A stretch of DNA of 64,000 nt from Escherichia coli (GTDB lineage Bacteria; Pseudomonadota; Gammaproteobacteria; Enterobacterales; Enterobacteriaceae), in NCBI RefSeq assembly GCF_003018115.1, contig NZ_CP027457.1. One strand, written 5' to 3'. Shown here one piece after another: positions 5,822-62,230 of this stretch. The number at the start of each line of letters is the position of its first letter. The first letter of the stretch is position 1. Below the pieces are notes generated by a model. That model saw only the letters and a program-made list of their open reading frames with translations. It did no database searches and was not told the origin of the DNA. Both the position numbers and the translations under genes were made by a program.

Positions 5822-6844
5822 ATGAAAGATAACAGACAAAAAGTCGTTCATTATAAAAAAGCAGTAATCCCACACAGCAAATCATCATTACAAAACATAC
5901 TACTTAGTATTATAGGTGAGGGCGGCGTTGCAGAAAAAGTACTTAGTAGACAAGAAAAAATAACACCTTCAGATGAAAATTCGGGGTATCGTTTCTTAAA
6001 TAAAAGCGACACATACAAAACTATACTTTTTGGGCAACTGGTTTTATTTGAAAAAGACAAAAGCCAGTCTCTATTAGAGCTTAGTGATAATGTTAAATTT
6101 TATGACATTAACTCCATCACGTCTAATGATATAATTATTGATGGAGATAAACGTAGTGACAAAAAAAGAGAGTTTGTAGATTCAATTTTATATTTTGGTG
6201 TACTAAACAACCATGTCATGATCGTTCAATCCACATCGCTTCGAGCAAGGGAGCTTGAGGCGCATTTGAATTGGCTAATTAATACATTCACAGATGAAAA
6301 AGAATCTGTGTTAATGCTTCAAGATAAGCCATCCGAAGAAACGATGAAAAAAATGGAGAAAGCACCAGCCAAGAGCATAAAAATTGGTGGATTACCCATT
6401 ACTTCAGAAGTTAAAAATTCAGAGAACCAAACACCCTCCTTTTCAAATGGTTCGGTGAAGACAATAAAATACCGCCCAATAGGGAAAGGAGGTGCGCTAC
6501 TAAAAGCATTTTTTGGCGATAACTGGGCAAATGATATAAACATTAAAGATTCATTAGATGAGGCCAATTTACAAGTAAGCCTCGAGATTACATACTTCAG
6601 AAAAACAAATGATAGCGGTCAAGCTGTTATAGACAGTATTGCTACCTCACTACGACATCTAGATGAGGATGATATTAGCATCAAACTTCAAGGCGGTGGG
6701 GAAATAACGGGAAAAGAGATAAAATTATCCGGAAAAATTAGCGTTGAACATAACAATGGCATTATTGATGAAAATGATTTATTCTTAAAAATGCATAAGT
6801 GGCTGTTCTCAAAACTTGATGCCGGAGAATTGGTTGCAAAATAA
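5822..6844 (+). CDS. Hypothetical 340-aa soluble protein, first gene of a rexA-position two-gene module (candidate phage-exclusion component)
   Basis: Long ORF in a markedly AT-rich segment immediately downstream of cI on the same strand; no family recognised by eye; no predicted TM segment. Confidence 0.6.
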   Translation: MKDNRQKVVHYKKAVIPHSKSSLQNILLSIIGEGGVAEKVLSRQEKITPSDENSGYRFLNKSDTYKTILFGQLVLFEKDKSQSLLELSDNVKFYDINSITSNDIIIDGDKRSDKKREFVDSILYFGVLNNHVMIVQSTSLRARELEAHLNWLINTFTDEKESVLMLQDKPSEETMKKMEKAPAKSIKIGGLPITSEVKNSENQTPSFSNGSVKTIKYRPIGKGGALLKAFFGDNWANDINIKDSLDEANLQVSLEITYFRKTNDSGQAVIDSIATSLRHLDEDDISIKLQGGGEITGKEIKLSGKISVEHNNGIIDENDLFLKMHKWLFSKLDAGELVAK

Positions 6845-8064: not shown

Positions 8065-8370
8065 TCACTTGTTTGGGCCGTGTGGAGCCAAAGCAAATTC
8101 AAGGTTGTAGATACTCCCATCAGGGGCTTTGAAATCAACCTCAAACCGAGATGGCGGATTGAATGGATCGAGTACATTTTCTGCTACGCATGTAGATCTC
8201 CAATTGATATGGCCTTTGCCAAGCGAGCGAGATTCCCACCAAGCTCTCCAGGTCTGGTCTTGCGGTTGATCACTCCCCTTTTCCCTTACATACCAATGAT
8301 TCTTTTTCGACTGCTTACCCATTTCTGCGGTTGGGTACATCGGAGAAGACTTTAACTTATCAATCAGCAT
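8065..8370 (-). CDS. Hypothetical 101-aa protein encoded antisense to the early-left operon
   Basis: ORF on the opposite strand with AAGGTG 6 nt upstream of the ATG at 8370 (track extends to an upstream GTG at 8379); no recognisable family; no TM segment. Confidence 0.4.
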   Translation of the reverse strand: MLIDKLKSSPMYPTAEMGKQSKKNHWYVREKGSDQPQDQTWRAWWESRSLGKGHINWRSTCVAENVLDPFNPPSRFEVDFKAPDGSIYNLEFALAPHGPNK

Positions 8371-26214: not shown

Positions 26215-26232
26215 GCAGGTGCTCATTTGATT

Positions 26233-26319
26233 GCCGGATGCGGCGTAAACGCCTTATCCGGCTTACCGCTCCGATACCCATTGTAGGCCTGATAAGACGC
26301 GTCAAGCGTCGCATCAGGC
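26233..26319. repeat. REP/BIME elements (GCCGGATGCGGCGTAAACGCCTTATCCGGC and AGGCCTGATAAGACGCGTCAAGCGTCGCATCAGGC)
   Basis: Palindromic REP consensus-like units between convergent purK and ybcF. Confidence 0.6.
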
Positions 26320-26350
26320 ATGGTGCACCGATTGCTGGATGCTCTCATCA

Positions 26351-34491: not shown

Positions 34492-34499
34492 GTAACATT

Positions 34500-34605
34500 G
34501 CCTGATGCGCTTCGCTTATCAGGCCTACATGATCTCTGCAATATATAGAATTTGCGCGATTTTCAGGAAGGATATAGTACTCATGCCGCATCCGGCATGA
34601 GTACT
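34500..34605. repeat. REP-type palindromic elements, including the perfect 13-bp-arm palindrome AGTACTCATGCCG-CATC-CGGCATGAGTACT
   Basis: REP-like GCCTGATGCG...ATCAGGC unit and perfect inverted repeat between convergent allE and glxK. Confidence 0.55.
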
Positions 34606-46443: not shown

Positions 46444-47553
<1,110 letters not shown>

Positions 47554-47632
47554 TGAGGGACGTATTTGTATTAGTCGCGACTTGATCTGACACATAGCCT
47601 TGAAAGGTTGAGAGTTACCGGTTTTGATATGA

Positions 47633-48040
47633 GTGTCGAATCCTTATCCAAAACAAGAGGTAACTCTCATGCTTCATACTGCCAATCCCGTCATCAAACA
47701 CAAAGCCGGTTTGCTCAATCTGGCTGAAGAACTCAGCAACGTATCAAAAGCTTGTAAAATCATGGGCGTTTCGCGTGATACGTTTTATCGTTACCGCGAA
47801 CTGGTCGCTGAAGGCGGTGTGGATGCGCAGATTAATCGTAGTCGCCGCGCTCCTAACCTTAAGAACCGTACCGATGAGGCAACTGAACAGGCTGTTGTTG
47901 ATTACGCCGTCGCTTTCCCGACACATGGTCAGCACCGGGCCAGCAACGAGCTGCGTAAACAGGAGGTTTTTATCTCCGACAGTGGTGTCCGTTCTGTCTG
48001 GTTACTCCATAACCTTGAGAATCTCAAAAGACGATACTGA
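47633..48040 (+). pseudogene. ybbD: Transposase N-terminal fragment (IS481-like HTH region), ybbD-like remnant
   Basis: 135-aa ORF resembling the HTH region of IS481-type transposases (VSRDTFYRYRELVAEGG...INRSRRAPN); no catalytic domain follows. Confidence 0.5.
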
Positions 48041-48094
48041 ACAAATTTTATCAGGTGACGTTCCGTAAAAAGTTGTATGGAGTTCTCGATGCAG

Positions 48095-48190
48095 TCGGCG
48101 CGACTATCAGTACCCCCGCTGAACCCTGGACTATCGGGCCGCCGTACTGGGGCATGTCACCCTGGCGTGCCGCTGGTTTTCCGCTAATGG
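48095..48190 (-). pseudogene. Orphan Rhs 5'-end fragment (start codon mutated ATG to ATT)
   Basis: Reverse strand encodes ...[31 protein letters not shown]..., a degenerate copy of the RhsD N-terminus ([32 protein letters not shown]); roughly 80% nucleotide identity to 53158-53228 by eye. Confidence 0.5.
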
Positions 48191-48554
48191 TTTATTTCCT
48201 CTTTCTTTCCCAGCAAGAATTTATTTTAATCCGGAAGGATTATTTATTTTCAGATAGGGACTCACATTAAACACGTAACATTTTAATTAATGCATGGCTG
48301 AATATGTATTACACAATGTCAGATATCGTAAAAGACCAGTGCAATTCTATGTAAACTCTCTGACTGTTCATTTTATTTGTTGTTTCAGGGTCGGAACTCA
48401 CCCTCAATAAACAACTGAATACGAGTAGATATTCATCGTCTGAGCTATATGGCTTTACACAATAGCCGACATGTCTTTTCTCAGTCAGGAATTTTACTTT
48501 TCCTCACTACGAAGTTGACGACTTCGATATGGGATAGACTCTTAATTCAAGCAA

Positions 48555-49046
48555 TTACTCTGCACAAGCATCAGGCAATCCAGCTCCAATATTTGTTATA
48601 AAATAATGCGTAACATTAATTTCACCAACAAAAAAAAGGTTTACGCTATCCCCTTGCCCTGGTATTTTACCATATTTACACCACACTTTTTTTGTATCTG
48701 GATCATTCTCTGATACGATTTTCGCCACTTGTTCCCTGGCCCTCACTGTCAATGTTTTCTTAAACCTACCCCCATCATCATTTGTTAGGGAAAAATAAGA
48801 AAAAAAATAATCATCTTCTACATTTGTGTATATTGATATATCCACCGCTACGTGCGGAAAAAAATCTGGGAGCCATGTAAAAACTCCATCATTTTCTGGT
48901 ATTGCCATATAGTTTATGTAATGTTTACTTACAAGAGATTCATCTTTGTATAAATAAAGATAAGTAATTACGCATAAAACAACAATGATTATAATAGCAA
49001 AAATAAATATTATCATCTTTGATAGATTACTTGAGATAGCCAGCAT
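48555..49046 (-). CDS. Probable Rhs immunity protein (N-terminal TM segment)
   Basis: AT-rich ORF immediately downstream of, and overlapping, the rhsD 3' end; hydrophobic N-terminus [22 protein letters not shown]. Confidence 0.6.
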
Positions 49047-52000
49047 CTTGTAAAGCCTTTATCGTTTTTTTATGCTCTGGATTAATATAATCACTACATC
49101 TATCTGAGCAATCTGTTGTTGATGGACATGTCAACCCATGGTCATTTACAGCCAAGTCTTTTTTATTATCTTCAATCATTTCAGAATGGGATAGCTTTAC
49201 TTTTCTGCCGTACATACCGAACAGATTTAACCCGTAATCTCTAATCTCTTTTTCATAACCCAGCCCTTTCGCCGATCGGCTAACACCAGCGTCATTTAAT
49301 TTAGACACTCGACAAAATGCCATACAATGGAAAAATTGATCAGTCCCACCTAAATTTAATCTCTTCATATCTTCATAAGTATCAGATAATATATCCCATG
49401 CTCTTTGATGGTTTAGTTGATCTTTTCTTCTTATTAGCGCTACATCTGCGGGACTTAACCCTAATGGATCAATACCATTCACCGGATTCAGCGGATACGC
49501 ATACAGACTCCATCCCCCCTCCAGCCCTATCGGGTCCTGAGTGATATACCGCCCCTGCAACGGATCGTAGTACCGGTTCCGGTTGTAGTACAGCCCCGAC
49601 TCCGTATCATACTGCTGCCCCGGCAGCCGGTACGGCTGGTGCAGGTGATGCGGGTTCTCCTCATTAAGCTGGTTGCCCCATTCATCATATTCCGCGCTCC
49701 ACGCCGTATTGCCGTCTTCACTGATAAGCGCCAGCGGCAGGCCCCGGTGGTCACAGTGATAAAGATGTATTTTTCGCTCAGGCAAATAAACCGGCTCTAT
49801 CTGTGCCGCCAGCCGCTCCACCGTCAGCCCGCACTGCGCAAGCCACTGGCGGCTTTCACTGCTCACGCAGTTTGCCCGGATTTCCCCCTCCAGCCTGTCC
49901 AGCAGCCCCACCAGTTCAGCCGGGAACACCACACCGTGACCGTCCTCACTCCCTTCCTGCTGTAACTTCTCCACCAGGCTTCGCCGCTGCGCTTTATCCA
50001 GTTCGCCGTTCTCTGTCTCGATGCGGATGAGCGGCGCGAAGCTCCCCGGCTGGTATACCGTCTGGATACGCGTGGTATCGGTCTGTACCGTCGTCAGCCA
50101 GTCGCCGTCCCATCCGTACCACGTCACCTCCGGTTTACGCGACAGCGACATCCATCCCGTCAGGTCACTCTCGCGACGCCACACCCGTTTCCCCGTCCGG
50201 CGGCCCAGCGGGTCGTAGAGGTAGCGGCTCTCGACCAGTGGCTCCTCATGCTGTATCCGCGTGTAAAACACCAGCCGGTGCTGGCTGTCGTAGTGGTAGT
50301 GGTGGGTCCGCTCGTCGTCCGTCCGTATCACACCCGTCGGGATGCGGTCCGTCTTCTCCGTCAGCCTGCCGTATTCATCGTGGCGGTAGACATAGTGCGC
50401 ATCCTCCGCGATGCGGTTATCCGGCCACACTGTGAGTGTACTGTCCGGGTGCAGCTCCGGGTCCGGCAGCCGGTTGCCCGCCGGGTCCGTGGCATACGGG
50501 ATGCGGATGTCCAGGTCTGGTGCGAGGGTGCGCACACTCTCCAGCCTGCCCGTGGCGCTGTAGCCGTATTCCCGCGTCTGTCGCGGGCCGCTGATGCGCA
50601 CCAGGTCGCCGTTGTCACTCCACCCGTAGTCACGGTCATATACCAGGCTGTTCAGGTGCTGGCTCTGTAACTGGCCTGCGGGGGTGTATGTGCTGGTCAG
50701 TTCGTATGCGGCATTACTGCCTGCCATGCTGCCGAAGCTGCGCACCGTCTCACGGTGCAGCCTGTCCCGCGTATACTCGACCAGCGGCGTCCCGCCCAGC
50801 TTCATTCCCGCCAGGTAACCGCTGCCATACGTCAGCCACTCCACCGGCGGCAGGCTGTCCGGCGTGACGCGGTTTGCCAGCCCCTGCTCGTTGTATGCGT
50901 GTTTCGTCTCATGCTGCCACAGCAGTTCCCCCGTCTCCGGGTTCTCCACCGTCTGGCGTTCGCCGGTCAGGCGGCCTTTATCGTCATAGCCATAGTGGAC
51001 GGCAACACGGTGGCCTTCGCTCAGGTGGCTGATGTCTGTCAGCCAGCCGTGGCCATCATACTGCCACTGCTCTGCCGGTTCGCCGTTCACCGTGCGGTGA
51101 GTGATACGGTCCGATTCATCGTAGTACCAGAGGGTGACAAGTCCCTCATCCTCACTCTGTGTGAGTTTTCCTGTCAGGTCATAATGATAACGCTGCGTCC
51201 GCCCGTCAAAGCCGCCCTGCTGTACCAGGCGGTCCAGCGCATCGTAACTGAAATCACTGTGGCTGCCGTTCTCGTTAGTCAGACTGATGACACGTCCGGC
51301 AACATCGTACTCCATACTGCGCGTCAGCCCGCCCTGCGTGGTGCTGACCGCCTTTCCCCACGCATCGTACTGTGTCTCGCTCCGGTTGCCGTCCGGAGTG
51401 ATAACGGCAGTCAGGTCGCCTGCGGCGTTGTACTCATACTGCGTTTCACGGCCCTGTGCGTCTTTCACCGAGGTTAACCGGCCACGGTTGTCATAGCGGC
51501 GGTAACGGCTGATACCTTCCTCGCGGTGGACCGCCGTCATCTGGCCGAAGCGGTCGTATTCATAGCGGGTCTGGTAGCCCGAGCAGTCGGTGAACGCCAG
51601 CAACTGCCCGTAGCGGCTCCACGTCATCTGCCGGGTGCTGCCCGTCGCATCTGTTGTCGTGGCCGGTAATTCACTGTGCGGATTATCATAAGCATACCGG
51701 ATGACGTCCCCGCTGCGCGATGTCTCCGATACCAGCCTGCCCGGTTCATCATATGCCCGGCGGCTCTCCAGCCCGTCCGGGGACACCACCGCCGTCAGCT
51801 GGTTCCCGTCGTTATAGTAAAATTTCGTCTCCCGCCCGTCCGGTGTGGTGATGTCCGTGATATCGCCGGACACCACATTCAGACCGTACTCTGTCCGCCG
51901 TCCCGCCGCGTCCGTCTGCGCCGTGAGCCTTCCTGCCGCGTCATACCCGCTGTGCGTGACGCTGCCGTCCGCCAGTTCTTTTTTCACCACCCGTTTCAGC

Positions 52001-53256
52001 CCGCCTTCACCTTCTGTATGCAGCACCTCACGCCGGTTCAGGCTGTCGGTGACGGTGATGCGGTCCTGCTCATAAAGATAGCGGTAACTTAACCCTGCCG
52101 GGTTCAGTTGCTCCACCACCCGCCCCGTATCGTCGTAGCGGTAGCGCATCTCCGGCCTTCCCGCATAACGGTGCGCCACCATCCGGCCCGGGTGCTGCGC
52201 GTCATACGTGAAAGCGCGCACCTGCGTATTGCTGCGGTCATATACCGCCAGCAGTTCACCGGCTTCCGTATACGTGTACCGCACCAGTGGCGCAGCGGGC
52301 AGGCTCTCCGGGTATGCCGGGTCGTGCATCAGCCACACCGCCGAAAGGCGGATACCCCTGTCGGGGCCGTATTCGGTACCGGGCAGTGTGTCGGGGAACG
52401 CTGAGGCTGAGAGAGGGCGGGAACTGTCAGAAGAAGATAGCGAAGAGGTGCGGGCCTCTTCCGCACGCTGCGCCTGCGTGGTCAGCACCAGACGGAACTC
52501 CCGCCCGGCACCGTCCGTCACGCCGGTGATTTCCCCGGCCAGGTCGCCTGCGGCCTCACGCCGGTACGTCAGCGTCCGCCCGAAGCGGTCCGCCATCCCG
52601 GTAAGCACCCGGTACGGCGGCAGCGGCGCTGGCAGTACGTCCTCAGCACCCGGCACCCGCTCAGACCACCCCAGTATCCACCACGGCCCCTGTGCGCTGT
52701 TGGTCGCCAGGTAAAGATGCGGACTTAACCGGATATCCGGCGGCAGCGCCCCCCACAGCCGCGCCAGCGTGTGGCCGTCCGGCTGTGCTGCCTTACCACC
52801 GCGCACCAGCCACATTGACTCGCTGCGGCTGTACACCGCCTCACCCGGCAGCAGCGGCTCAAAGTGAATGCTCCGCCCGCCGTTGTCGTTGAGTATCAGT
52901 CCGTCATCACGTAGCTGTAAGCGGATATCAGAAGGCGCTTTCCAGCCGGGGCCGAAAAAGCCCACCGGTGCAGGCGTCCGGGTCCGGTAGCTGCTGTAGG
53001 TGCGGGAGAGAATGAACGGCAGCGGGCCGTGCAGCGCAAGGTCCGTCTCGCCGGGCAGCACCTTCGCCCCCAGCAGCGGATTTACCGGGTTGCCCGAAGT
53101 CATCCCGCCCGGACACACCGAGCACGCCACGCCAGTTGGCGCGCCAATTCTTACACCTGCCGACCCCTGGACAATGGGACCGCCATACTGAGTCATATCT
53201 CCCTGACGCGCCGCTGGTTTTCCGCTCATATAAAGTGCCCTTTTAGTTTTGTTCAT
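49027..53256 (-). CDS. rhsD: Rhs-family protein with YD-repeat core and variable AT-rich C-terminal tip after the DPxGL motif
   Basis: 1409-aa ORF; N-terminus [26 protein letters not shown] (the track start lies 9 codons upstream of MSGKP, making the preferred start about 53229); YD repeats; DPLGL boundary followed by a low-GC tip. Confidence 0.92.
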
Positions 53257-53656
53257 ATCCCTGTGTTAGCAACAAAAAAATAAAATGACACACAAGACCA
53301 GCTAATGTATTTATATATTTTTCACATAAACTTATTTGTTCTCAATCAACAACAACTGTTATTACAGGTCACTTTCAATATTTTATTAAACTAAAATTTT
53401 TAGCACAGATGAATTCATCATCAACAAATTCACTATATGGATAATATCCATTCAACGCATATGATTTATGATTTTATTAGTCTGAGTTATTTTTGTAGGG
53501 CTATATTTAAAATTATTAAACTCCACCGATTCAGATTAATATCAGCAATAGAAAAACAGGAAATCACCAATTCAATAACATCATCAATGAAACATATTGT
53601 AGAATTAATTTAAACAAGGCGTTCCATTCAACCAGAACGCCCCTTATTTACTCTCA

Positions 53657-56071
53657 TCACCCCGCAAACTGCCTGAACAGCGCCTTACCCTTAACCAGTC
53701 TCGCGCCCAGCCAGCCGCCGAAAAGCGACAGCAGCAGCGCACCGCAGCACGGCAGAACAATCCACAATCGCCAGTCTGGCTCCCACGGGAAATCAAACAC
53801 TTTCGCCTGCAACACTGCCAGCGCCGTTTCCGCACCAATTGCGGCCACCAGGCCAGAAACAAACCCAAGCATGGCGAACTCGCACCACAATGTCGTGCGC
53901 AGCAGTTTTTTCCCCGCACCGAGTGTGCGCCACACCACCAGCTCCTGATGACGCTGACGCATTCCCACCTGCACCTGTGCCAGCAACAGCAACATACCGC
54001 AGGCGGTGACCAGCACCACCATCACCTCCAGCGCCCGACTTACCTGCTCCAGCACCTGACCGACCTGTTTTAAAATCGCGCCAATGTCTAACAGGCTAAT
54101 GGTCGGGAACTGGCGGTTGAGTTGCGTCAACATGCCGTTGCCATTCTCCCAGCGGAAACTGGTAAGCCAGCTCTGCGGTTGCCCGTCTAATGCCCCTTCC
54201 GGGAAAATAAAATAGAAATTAGGCCGCAAACTTTCCCAGTCCACTTTGCGCAGGCTGGTCACTTTAGCGCGGAACTCCTGGGTATCGCCCATAAAAGTCA
54301 CGGTATCTCCGAGGGTAACGTTTAAGCGTTTCGCCAGCCCCTCTTCCATCGACACTTCATCAGCTTTTGGCGGCCAGTTACCGGCGACAATCGGATTATG
54401 ATCGGGCCGCGTATTTTGCCAGGTAAGATTGAGTTCGCGGTTGAGCGCCTCATCTTCATTGCCTTCTGTCGGCTTGCCGTTAATCGCCGTCAGCCGCGCT
54501 CGCACCACCGGATAAAACGATTCCGGGACTATCTGATGTTCCGCGAGGAACGCTTTTAGCGGCGTAACCTGTTCTGTGGCGATGTTGATTAAAAAGTAGT
54601 TCGGGCTTTCTGGCGGTAGCTGTTGTTGCCAGCGGTCTAGCAGATCGCCACGCAACACCAGCAGCAGCGCCAGCAGCATAAAGGAGAGCGAAAAAGCTGA
54701 AAGCTGGCTTAACGTTGACCACGGCTGACGTAACAGGCGGCTAACCGCCAGGCGCAGAGGCAGCGATTTCAGCGTCATGCGGCGAAGTACATTCAGCAGC
54801 ATCCAGCCCAGCACACCGCACAGCAAAGCCAGTACTACCGCGCCCGCCAGCACCGCCCAGAGCAGCATACTGCCGCCCATTAATCCGGCAAGCAGCAGCA
54901 CAACCACCACACTGACAATCGGCAGATAAAACTTCAGCGGCCAGACGTTCGCTACCACATCATTACGTAATACGCGTAAAGGCTGCGTTGCCAGCAACAA
55001 GCGGTACGGTCGTAGCCCCACCAGCAGCGAGATGACTGTCATGGTGCCAAGCGCCCACAGCCACGGCCAGAGACTGGCAGGCGGTAGTGCAGCAGGCAGA
55101 ACGGGCTTGAGCAGCACCATCAACACGTTTTCGAACAACAGGCCTATCGCCCCACCGGTAACGGCTGAAAGCGCCAGCACCATCAACCACTGACCGACGA
55201 TTAGCTTACGCAGTTGCGCTCGCCCTGCCCCCAGCGTTTTGAGGATCGCCACCAGATCGTAGCGACTGCGACAGTAATGATTCATCGCTACCGCCACTGC
55301 TGCCACTGCCAGCAGCAAGGTCAGAAGCGCCGAAAGCAGCAGGAACTGTTGCGAGCGTTCCATCGATCGCCCCAGCGCGCCTTCGTCCTGTTCCAGACCG
55401 TACCAGCGTTGTTCGGGTTTAAGCTGAGGTAACAACCATTTCTCATAGCTGTCGAGCTGGTTCTCGCTGCCGCCGAATTTATAGCGCCAGGTGACCCGAC
55501 TCCCCGGCTGCACGGCTCCGGTTTTATCGACATCCGCCAGATTCATCATCAGACGCGGAGCCATCTGGAAGGGGTTAAAACCGGAATCCGGTTCCTGAAT
55601 CACTTCTCCGGCAATCCGCAAGGTGGCATCGCCCACGTCAATGGTGTCGCCCGTTTTCAGGTTAAGCAGTGCCATCAGGCGTGGGGCCAGCAATACGCTG
55701 CCCGCCTGCGGTTTCAGGCCAGGGGGATTGGTTTGCAGATCGCCATACATCGGGTAGATATCATCCACCGCTTTGACGTTCGCCAGCTGCGGTGTGTCGC
55801 CTGCAAATGTCATGGTGGCGAAAGTCAGCTGCTTGCCGACTTTCAGGCCGCGCTTTTGCGCTTCCTCCAGCCACGCTTGCGGCACTTCGCGCGAACTGCG
55901 CAACGCCCGATCGCCCGACATAAACTCCCGGCTTTGCTGGCTTAAGCCCTTCTCCATGCGATCGCTGATATTGCCCAGCGCCAGCACGCAGGCCACCGCC
56001 AGGCTTAGCGCCAGCCAGACAATTAATAACGACGGCGAGCGCCATTCGCGCCAGAACCAACGTGCAATCAT
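53657..56071 (-). CDS. ybbP: ABC transporter permease (FtsX-like, duplicated), YbbP
   Basis: 804-aa polytopic protein, 4-nt overlap with the upstream ATPase gene. Confidence 0.9.
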   Translation of the reverse strand: MIARWFWREWRSPSLLIVWLALSLAVACVLALGNISDRMEKGLSQQSREFMSGDRALRSSREVPQAWLEEAQKRGLKVGKQLTFATMTFAGDTPQLANVKAVDDIYPMYGDLQTNPPGLKPQAGSVLLAPRLMALLNLKTGDTIDVGDATLRIAGEVIQEPDSGFNPFQMAPRLMMNLADVDKTGAVQPGSRVTWRYKFGGSENQLDSYEKWLLPQLKPEQRWYGLEQDEGALGRSMERSQQFLLLSALLTLLLAVAAVAVAMNHYCRSRYDLVAILKTLGAGRAQLRKLIVGQWLMVLALSAVTGGAIGLLFENVLMVLLKPVLPAALPPASLWPWLWALGTMTVISLLVGLRPYRLLLATQPLRVLRNDVVANVWPLKFYLPIVSVVVVLLLAGLMGGSMLLWAVLAGAVVLALLCGVLGWMLLNVLRRMTLKSLPLRLAVSRLLRQPWSTLSQLSAFSLSFMLLALLLVLRGDLLDRWQQQLPPESPNYFLINIATEQVTPLKAFLAEHQIVPESFYPVVRARLTAINGKPTEGNEDEALNRELNLTWQNTRPDHNPIVAGNWPPKADEVSMEEGLAKRLNVTLGDTVTFMGDTQEFRAKVTSLRKVDWESLRPNFYFIFPEGALDGQPQSWLTSFRWENGNGMLTQLNRQFPTISLLDIGAILKQVGQVLEQVSRALEVMVVLVTACGMLLLLAQVQVGMRQRHQELVVWRTLGAGKKLLRTTLWCEFAMLGFVSGLVAAIGAETALAVLQAKVFDFPWEPDWRLWIVLPCCGALLLSLFGGWLGARLVKGKALFRQFAG

Positions 56072-62080: not shown

Positions 62081-62086
<6 letters not shown>
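61628..62086 (+). CDS. ybbJ: NfeD-like membrane protein YbbJ
   Basis: 152-aa protein, 4-nt overlap with qmcA (typical SPFH/NfeD pair). Confidence 0.9.

Positions 62087-62230
<144 letters not shown>

Follow-up and report, generated by a model that had tools for sequence, protein, structure and literature searches.

Organization of the locus

The relics described here lie in a 64,000-nucleotide stretch of Escherichia coli DNA (contig NZ_CP027457.1, assembly GCF_003018115.1), hereafter the window, whose coordinates are used throughout. Around them the genes follow in the order allS, selU (mnmH), the two relics, ybbD, an rhs gene of full length and ybbP (Table 1), the equivalent order in MG1655 (NC_000913.3) being rhsD, ybbC, ylbH, ybbD, ylbI, ylbG and selU. 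The relics sit at the margin of the RhsD island that faces selU, and they meet there 3'-end to 3'-end. In the genomes free of ylbG (about 2,500), alignment to the window ends at 47544-47560 on the selU side and resumes at 53647-53651 on the ybbP side, and these limits place the RhsD island, which separates selU from ybbP, at 47561-53649 (~6.1 kb).

Both relics have names in K-12. The transposase remnant is ylbG (b0502, 372 bp) and the Rhs fragment is ylbI (b4632, a 96-bp pseudogene); the two are annotated K-12 pseudogenes, and the PGAP label on their equivalents reads 'incomplete; missing C-terminus', while MG1655 keeps ylbG as a CDS described as a 'putative DNA-binding transcriptional regulator'. 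The K-12 pair (NC_000913.3, 529497-530016) occupies the same locus in the same order, on the same strands and at the same lengths, with the same ATT in place of the ylbI start codon; identity to the window is 99.4-99.8%, and ylbG differs by 2 nt. The initial annotation had called the transposase remnant ybbD-like, a name that belongs to a separate gene, ybbD (b0501). That gene, directly downstream of rhsD, is intact in this strain and split in K-12, and its product is presumed to be the immunity partner of the C-terminal tip of RhsD. The arrangement is fixed across E. coli: in a megablast search at ≥80% coverage, the segment 47560-48560 was present in 2,724 of 5,426 complete E. coli genomes, K-12 and O157:H7 among them, almost always at ≥99% identity. 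Both relics are already known and ordinary, a scar of evolution and not a working element.

Table 1. Features between selU and ybbP in the window. L012 and L015 are the intact IS481-family reference copies; IR, inverted repeat.
Feature	Position	Strand	Description
selU (mnmH)	46459-47553	+	
Left terminal IR	47567-47593	+	TGTATTAGTCGCGACTTGATCTGACAC; same sequence, or nearly so, at the left ends of L012 (1899) and L015 (1071)
5' UTR hairpin	47610-47668	+	10-bp perfect outer arms GAGAGTTACC / GGTAACTCTC; RNA fold
ylbG	47669-48040	+	123 codons and stop; transposase codons 1 to ~120 with HTH domains, then a frameshifted tail
Internal-deletion junction	48025-48033	+	9-nt imperfect microhomology (CAAAAGACG); BLAST segments to L002, L012 and L015 overlap there
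Internal IS piece	48034-48093	+	IS ~940-999, transposase codons ~280-299, '...ILNKFYQVTFRKKLYGVLDA'; frame differs from that of ylbG
IS/Rhs junction	48092-48093	.	2-nt 'CA' common to the IS alignment (ends 48093) and the Rhs alignment (extendable to 48092)
ylbI	48093-48188	-	codons 1-32 of a Rhs/PAAR-type N-terminus; ATT for ATG
Leader/spacer, ybbD to ylbI	48189-48541	-	AT-rich, 33-38% GC
ybbD	48555-49046	-	163 aa; NCBIfam NF011298, 379 bits; PF26610 YbbD_head
rhsD, full-length	49027-53256	-	1409 aa; Pfam RHS_repeat x13, DUF6531, RHS; K-12 rhsD alignment
ybbP	53657-56071	-	

The IS481-family remnant

What remains of a 1201-bp IS481-family element occupies 47567-48093 on the plus strand. Two intact copies served as references, one on an E. 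albertii plasmid (L012, NZ_CP117662.1) and one on an E. coli plasmid (L015, NZ_OY856300.1), each 1201 bp long with TGT...ACA ends and a 346-aa transposase that exceeds the IS481 cut-off. The transposase of L012 reaches 293 bits on the NCBIfam model NF033577 ('IS481 family transposase'), above the cut-off of 224, and carries rve and rve_3 at residues 162-326; L015 is flanked on both sides by an ACTGAC duplication. The left IR, the 5' hairpin and the transposase N-terminus are common to these elements and the window copy, whereas in the latter the DDE (rve) core is shorter by 472 bp and the terminal 202 bp, right IR included, are gone. Its left IR occurs once in the window, 6 nt in from the island's border on the selU side, and no right IR was found anywhere in the window in a scan allowing up to 3 mismatches, so that only one of the two repeats expected of an IS481 element is present. 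Lacking both the right IR and the DDE core, the remnant is incapable of transposition. A composite element bracketed by IS481 ends was also considered and was rejected, as the whole window holds no right IR.

The 5' UTR hairpin, which ends at the ATG of ylbG and sequesters the Shine-Dalgarno sequence, has a predicted folding energy of -26.5 kcal/mol (z = -3.4) and is conserved across all IS copies compared. The open reading frame that contains ylbG spans 47633-48040 (+), with the annotated ATG at 47669, and matches Pfam HTH_29 (E 2.4e-20) as well as HTH_32. On NF033577 its product scores 88.9 bits against the cut-off of 224, the match being confined to positions 2-112 of the 284 in the model, and a Pfam search found no rve/DDE catalytic domain in it. 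Judged by these profile matches, ylbG is a homologue of the IS481 family, but a fragment, as the initial annotation had recognized in describing a truncated IS481-like transposase N-terminus.

Downstream, the element is interrupted twice. An internal deletion of 472 bp, equivalent to L012 2366-2837, removed most of the rve/DDE domain and shifted the frame, by which the stop codon of ylbG was created; on the 3' side of this gap, codons ~278-299 are retained. The 53 nt between the open reading frame and ylbI (48041-48093) are IS sequence as well, and no spacer intervenes. Identity of the internal piece reaches 94% with L015 2001-2069 and 81-84% with L012 and two further copies (L002 and L004). 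The 5' part of the remnant is 95.7% identical to L012 and 86% to L015, and the 3' piece 81% and 94%, respectively. An origin of the two pieces from two different IS copies was rejected as unnecessary; since the identities to L012 and L015 are reversed between the two parts, the IS group is itself mosaic. This mosaic pattern implies recombination among IS variants.

As a separate observation, antisense matches to the Rfam family psRNA2 (RF02349), below threshold at 32-34 bits (gathering score 65), fall on the left end in all of the IS481-family copies that were examined: 47495-47666 (-) in the window, 1818-1998 in L012, 1009-1170 in L015 and 2935-3100 in L002. This suggests that the psRNA2 family overlaps IS481-type left ends, that is, their hairpin and IR.

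The Rhs 5' stub

On the opposite strand, the initial annotation had seen a degenerate copy of the first 30 or so codons of rhsD with ATT in place of ATG. The fragment and its start codon are as described. ylbI aligns without gaps to the rhsD start (53134-53229, -), with 75 of 96 bases identical and an E value of 9.5e-18 against the whole 64-kb window, where the next-best match has an E value of 0.64; the nucleotide identity by which that reading was to stand or fall is therefore significant. The intervals first proposed, 48095-48190 and 53140-53235, contained the right features and were displaced by 2-6 nt from the actual 48093-48188 and 53134-53229. The first codon (48188-48186) is ATT in the window and in 5/5 other loci checked.

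Translated, ylbI shares 28 of 32 residues with RhsD, whose MSGKP start lies at 53229 and whose 5' end is the paralogous counterpart of the fragment; this identity assigns it to the N-terminal PAAR-like region of Rhs proteins, and its match to Pfam PAAR_motif (E 9e-4, 19.9 bits) stays below the gathering score of 27. With ATT at its head and a pseudogene annotation, ylbI has no usable start codon or open reading frame. It stops at codon 32, where IS sequence follows, and thus holds no YD/RHS repeat core, core-end motif or toxin tip, the complete domain set occurring only in the adjacent rhsD; nor is it an orphan toxin/immunity module, being a 5' fragment with no cargo downstream.

The pattern of divergence bears on where the fragment came from. 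Seventeen of the 21 differences between ylbI and rhsD fall at third codon positions, and over codons 2-32 (20 differences, Nei-Gojobori) dS is ~1.6, a value near saturation, dN is 0.056 and dN/dS is 0.035. Three amino-acid differences are specific to ylbI, namely T13P, R27L and G29V; over these codons the number of nonsynonymous differences between rhsD and a further E. coli rhs gene (strain JNEC-KY203) is 0, and for this reason the nonsynonymous changes are unique to ylbI. Moreover, homology between rhsD and ylbI starts at the start codon, the sequences upstream being unrelated, and identity of ylbI to sampled E. coli rhs 5' ends ranges from 75% to 82%, with no close full-length relative.

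These data weigh against the view that ylbI arose by local duplication of the rhsD 5' end during Rhs rearrangement and decayed thereafter. A local duplicate would agree with the shared orientation, the shared island and the 28 identical residues, but neutral decay would not yield differences that are overwhelmingly synonymous, homology ends at the start codon, and ylbI is slightly closer to another rhs lineage (82%) than to rhsD (78%); we regard local duplication as highly unlikely, and the term degenerate copy does not hold. Mostly synonymous divergence together with homology that ends at the start codon points instead to a different rhs gene that was under purifying selection before it was truncated. 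ylbI is accordingly the stub of a separate and once functional rhs lineage, which no longer occurs in the genomes that were searched. A full-length rhs gene with the ylbI leader or its synonymous signature was not found: BLASTN against E. coli gave no match above 82%, in 100,044 species genomes scanned for the exact pattern the sole match was a mis-binned E. coli contig of K-12-like arrangement, and two ylbI signature patterns retrieved nothing from the JGI metagenomes.

Within ylbI, on the plus strand (48151-48171) and downstream of ylbG, there is a terminator-like hairpin with a T-tract. With 1 site observed and 1.0 expected, it is probably fortuitous.

The junction and the leader

The IS remnant and ylbI are joined at a 2-nt CA microhomology, which is typical of illegitimate joining. 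Because the Rhs stub is attached to an internal position of the IS and not to its terminus, the joint indicates illegitimate recombination, as opposed to transposition of the element into an rhs gene.

Upstream of ylbI, the AT-rich leader retains the Shine-Dalgarno sequence AGAGGA (48202-48197), and the proximal part aligns with the vgrG-linked rhsE-type leader. The spacer was considered as a part of the ybbD module, and this was rejected because homology stops at 48542 in other species, among them one whose YbbD is 71% identical; in addition, no second rhs start was present downstream at the YbbD-homologue loci of those species. A segment of 183 bp (48237-48419) is 86% identical to positions 6001-6185 of a variant RhsE locus (L003), in which it lies downstream of a putative immunity gene and adjoins an H-rpt/ISAs1 element. 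The K-12 RhsE locus, considered as a second carrier of this segment, was rejected, since the segment is absent there and restricted to the variant locus. In another enterobacterium (Logan SRR19631114; L016, ~880-960), a ybbD that is 71% identical follows an rhs tip near pbpC and yfhM, and the spacer downstream of it holds, by translation read by eye, a short orphan rhs core-end fragment.

According to published data, the interval from ybbD to ylbI contains a 'constitutive promoter' that binds sigma-70 RNA polymerase (Shimada et al. 2014, PMC3946193), and a ChIP peak of FNR has been assigned to ylbI (PMC1802558). The published TCGTCA-19-TAAAAT element was located at 48521-48491 (-). A consensus promoter scan detected no strong promoter, and Rfam together with promoter and terminator scans gave nothing above threshold across the relic span. 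The sigma-70 binding and the FNR peak fit a fossil rhs leader, and, given the promoter binding seen in vitro upstream of ylbI, some residual transcription may occur.

Decay or function

Whether the relics have been put to use was judged from their substitutions and from the tolerance of the locus. When the changes in ylbG were polarised with the two intact IS copies, its branch was found to carry 10 nonsynonymous changes and 1 synonymous change, a ratio that shows decay with no purifying selection; the pairwise dN/dS is 0.77. In MG1655, cassettes of 7 kb have been inserted between ybbD and ylbG, an interval that served as a neutral landing pad (PMC2847246; bioRxiv 10.1101/2020.01.04.894907). 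Given this use and the natural deletions and interruptions by IS elements, the region is dispensable.

Domestication has been weighed against decay. By this account, YlbG, formed from the DNA-binding domain of the transposase, would act as an HTH regulator or an inhibitor of transposition, and/or the promoter in the leader of ylbI would produce a regulatory RNA lying antisense to ylbG as well as to the 3' end of selU. The ylbG frame is intact in the island-bearing genomes examined, its annotation in MG1655 names a regulator, the relic is 99.2-99.8% conserved, and both sigma-70 holoenzyme binding and the FNR ChIP peak lie upstream of ylbI. Against these stand the ten-to-one excess of nonsynonymous changes on the ylbG branch, the failure of the consensus scan to reveal a strong promoter and the tolerance of 7-kb insertions as well as of natural IS insertions and deletions, while the high identity merely mirrors the shallow divergence of E. 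coli. We hold domestication to be improbable. It is less probable still that an rhs promoter survives in the ylbI leader, with its sigma-70 binding in vitro and FNR ChIP signal, and drives an RNA of ~400 nt through the Rhs stub and antisense over ylbG and the left-end hairpin of the IS toward the 3' end of selU, or that YlbG is an HTH repressor of related IS481 elements that arrive on plasmids; if true, the ~400-nt RNA would give the fossil a regulatory role.

ylbI as a recombination target

The initial annotation had proposed that the Rhs fragment could serve as a target of recombination. Efficient RecA-dependent exchange in E. coli usually needs a minimal efficient processing segment of ~23-27 nt. 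Exact identity between ylbI and rhsD extends over 17 nt at most, which falls below this length and makes ylbI a poor target. Moreover, the deletion product that exchange between rhsD and ylbI would leave was present in 0 of 5,426 genomes, as searched with a 610-nt chimeric query at ≥80% coverage. Matches at 60% coverage that resembled chimeras were rejected as ordinary rhsD 5' ends lengthened by megablast extension.

Were ylbI a live substrate, RecA exchange with the rhsD 5' end or with incoming rhs DNA would delete or replace the Rhs element. The geometry, direct repeats 5 kb apart, would permit a deletion; recombination is known to act on Rhs cores and on orphan C-terminal fragments (PMC2935791), and in the window itself rhsD is joined to a ylbH-type tip across a 252-bp repeat. 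On the other hand, 96 nt at 78% identity with no exact run beyond 17 nt offers little to RecA, the predicted product is missing from every genome searched, and the variants that do occur are IS-mediated (L013 and L014). A role as a live substrate is therefore very unlikely, and that proposal is not sustained.

The RhsD island as a variable site

Alternative arrangements across E. coli, which the initial annotation had suggested looking for, do exist, in the form of IS insertions and IS-mediated deletions; rhsD/ylbI recombinants do not figure among them. In one genome (L013, 7630-10700), ISCro1 of the IS66 family is inserted in the spacer between ybbD and ylbI. In another (L014, 7455-9640), a deletion flanked by IS3 and IS1 has taken ylbI, ybbD and nearly all of rhsD, and most of ylbG is kept.

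Where the island is missing, the interval between selU and ybbP differs from genome to genome. An empty-site genome (L007) can be aligned only up to 47560 and has ~226 bp of REP elements in the gap; a second genome (L008) has a dinQ-like type I toxin there, and a third (L009) has an Hcp/TssD-fusion gene with three DUF2931 genes. The selU-ybbP interval can thus be described as a variable site with at least 4 states, the RhsD island included, in which every non-empty state holds toxin-related cargo. Repeats of the REP/BIME type at window positions 26232-26328, 34497-34600 and 62081-62214 match the L007-type REP cluster at 78-97% identity.

In this strain, the K-12 rhsD core is fused directly to a ylbH-type C-terminal tip, after which the intact 163-aa ybbD follows; the rhsD-CT/ybbC module of K-12, that is, the K-12 rhsD tip and ybbC (~945 bp), is missing (window 49484-49735 and 48542-49480; L001 9176-10119). 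The joint between rhsD and the ylbH-type tip falls inside a 252-bp stretch that is duplicated in K-12, and either it is the state that preceded displacement or it is a deletion produced by recombination between core and orphan. Among three island-bearing genomes (L001, L010 and L013), the relic region together with the spacer and ybbD (47567-49480) is 99.2-99.8% identical, slightly more uniform than selU at 98.6-99.2%; the rhsD core, at 92-98%, is far less uniform. The rhsD core of island-bearing genomes is probably a mosaic.

Proposed history and relation to known systems

Taken with its proposed history, the region is most probably a fossil junction without function, located where the RhsD island borders on selU. 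The initial annotation had taken the relics, downstream of the Rhs element, for scars left by past Rhs rearrangement, and this outline was right, with IS and rhs fragments illegitimately joined. For the history itself, we infer both the order of events and a former full-length tandem rhs. A 1201-bp IS481-family element would once have lain beside selU. Downstream of rhsD-ybbD, in the same orientation and transcribed toward the IS, there may have been a second rhs of a lineage distinct from rhsD, equipped with an AT-rich leader and a ribosome-binding site of its own. Illegitimate joining at 2 nt of microhomology would then have fused IS position 999 to rhs codon 32, removing the tail of the IS and its right IR along with the body of the second rhs, its toxin tip and its immunity gene, so that of this gene the promoter, leader and 32 codons would be left; the event could have been a deletion on the spot, or the joint could mark where a patch of horizontally acquired DNA ends. 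A separate deletion of slippage type, at the 9-nt microhomology, would have taken the 472 bp of the transposase DDE core. Both stubs would have drifted since, ylbI acquiring ATT for ATG together with three altered residues and ylbG acquiring ten altered residues. No genome with a full-length second rhs at this site was found among those searched; tandem rhs genes have been documented in Salmonella (PMC2935791).

Comparison with known systems helps to place ylbI. Orphan rhs C-terminal modules, such as K-12 ylbH and those of Salmonella, which are attributed to 'C-terminal displacement' (Jackson et al. 2009, PMC2935791), resemble ylbI in being relics of turnover that lie downstream of a full-length rhs in the same orientation. 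Besides homology to the 3' end of the core, these modules still carry a toxin tip with an immunity gene, and recombination can reactivate them (PMC2935791). ylbI, by contrast, is a 5' end of 32 codons with no toxin or immunity cargo and no evidence of recombination. A second point of comparison is the 5' stub of rhsE in WP4-S18-ESBL-09 (L003, ~8335-8369), in which, as in ylbI, a similar leader, the start codon position and the first codons stand beside an IS. That stub, with ~17 nt of coding sequence left, abuts an ISEc1/H-rpt element annotated as intact and is consistent with IS-associated truncation, whereas ylbI abuts an internal IS position, which indicates an illegitimate deletion.

The locus has little significance beyond bookkeeping, the relics being annotated in K-12 and the site being in use for neutral integration. 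The present analysis adds the anatomy, namely two separate illegitimate deletions with their exact break points and microhomologies, the corrected name ylbG, the origin of ylbI from a distinct rhs lineage and the variability of the selU-ybbP site. The lineage of ylbI hints at two rhs genes that formerly stood in tandem in the RhsD island, which would add a little to the known course of Rhs turnover.
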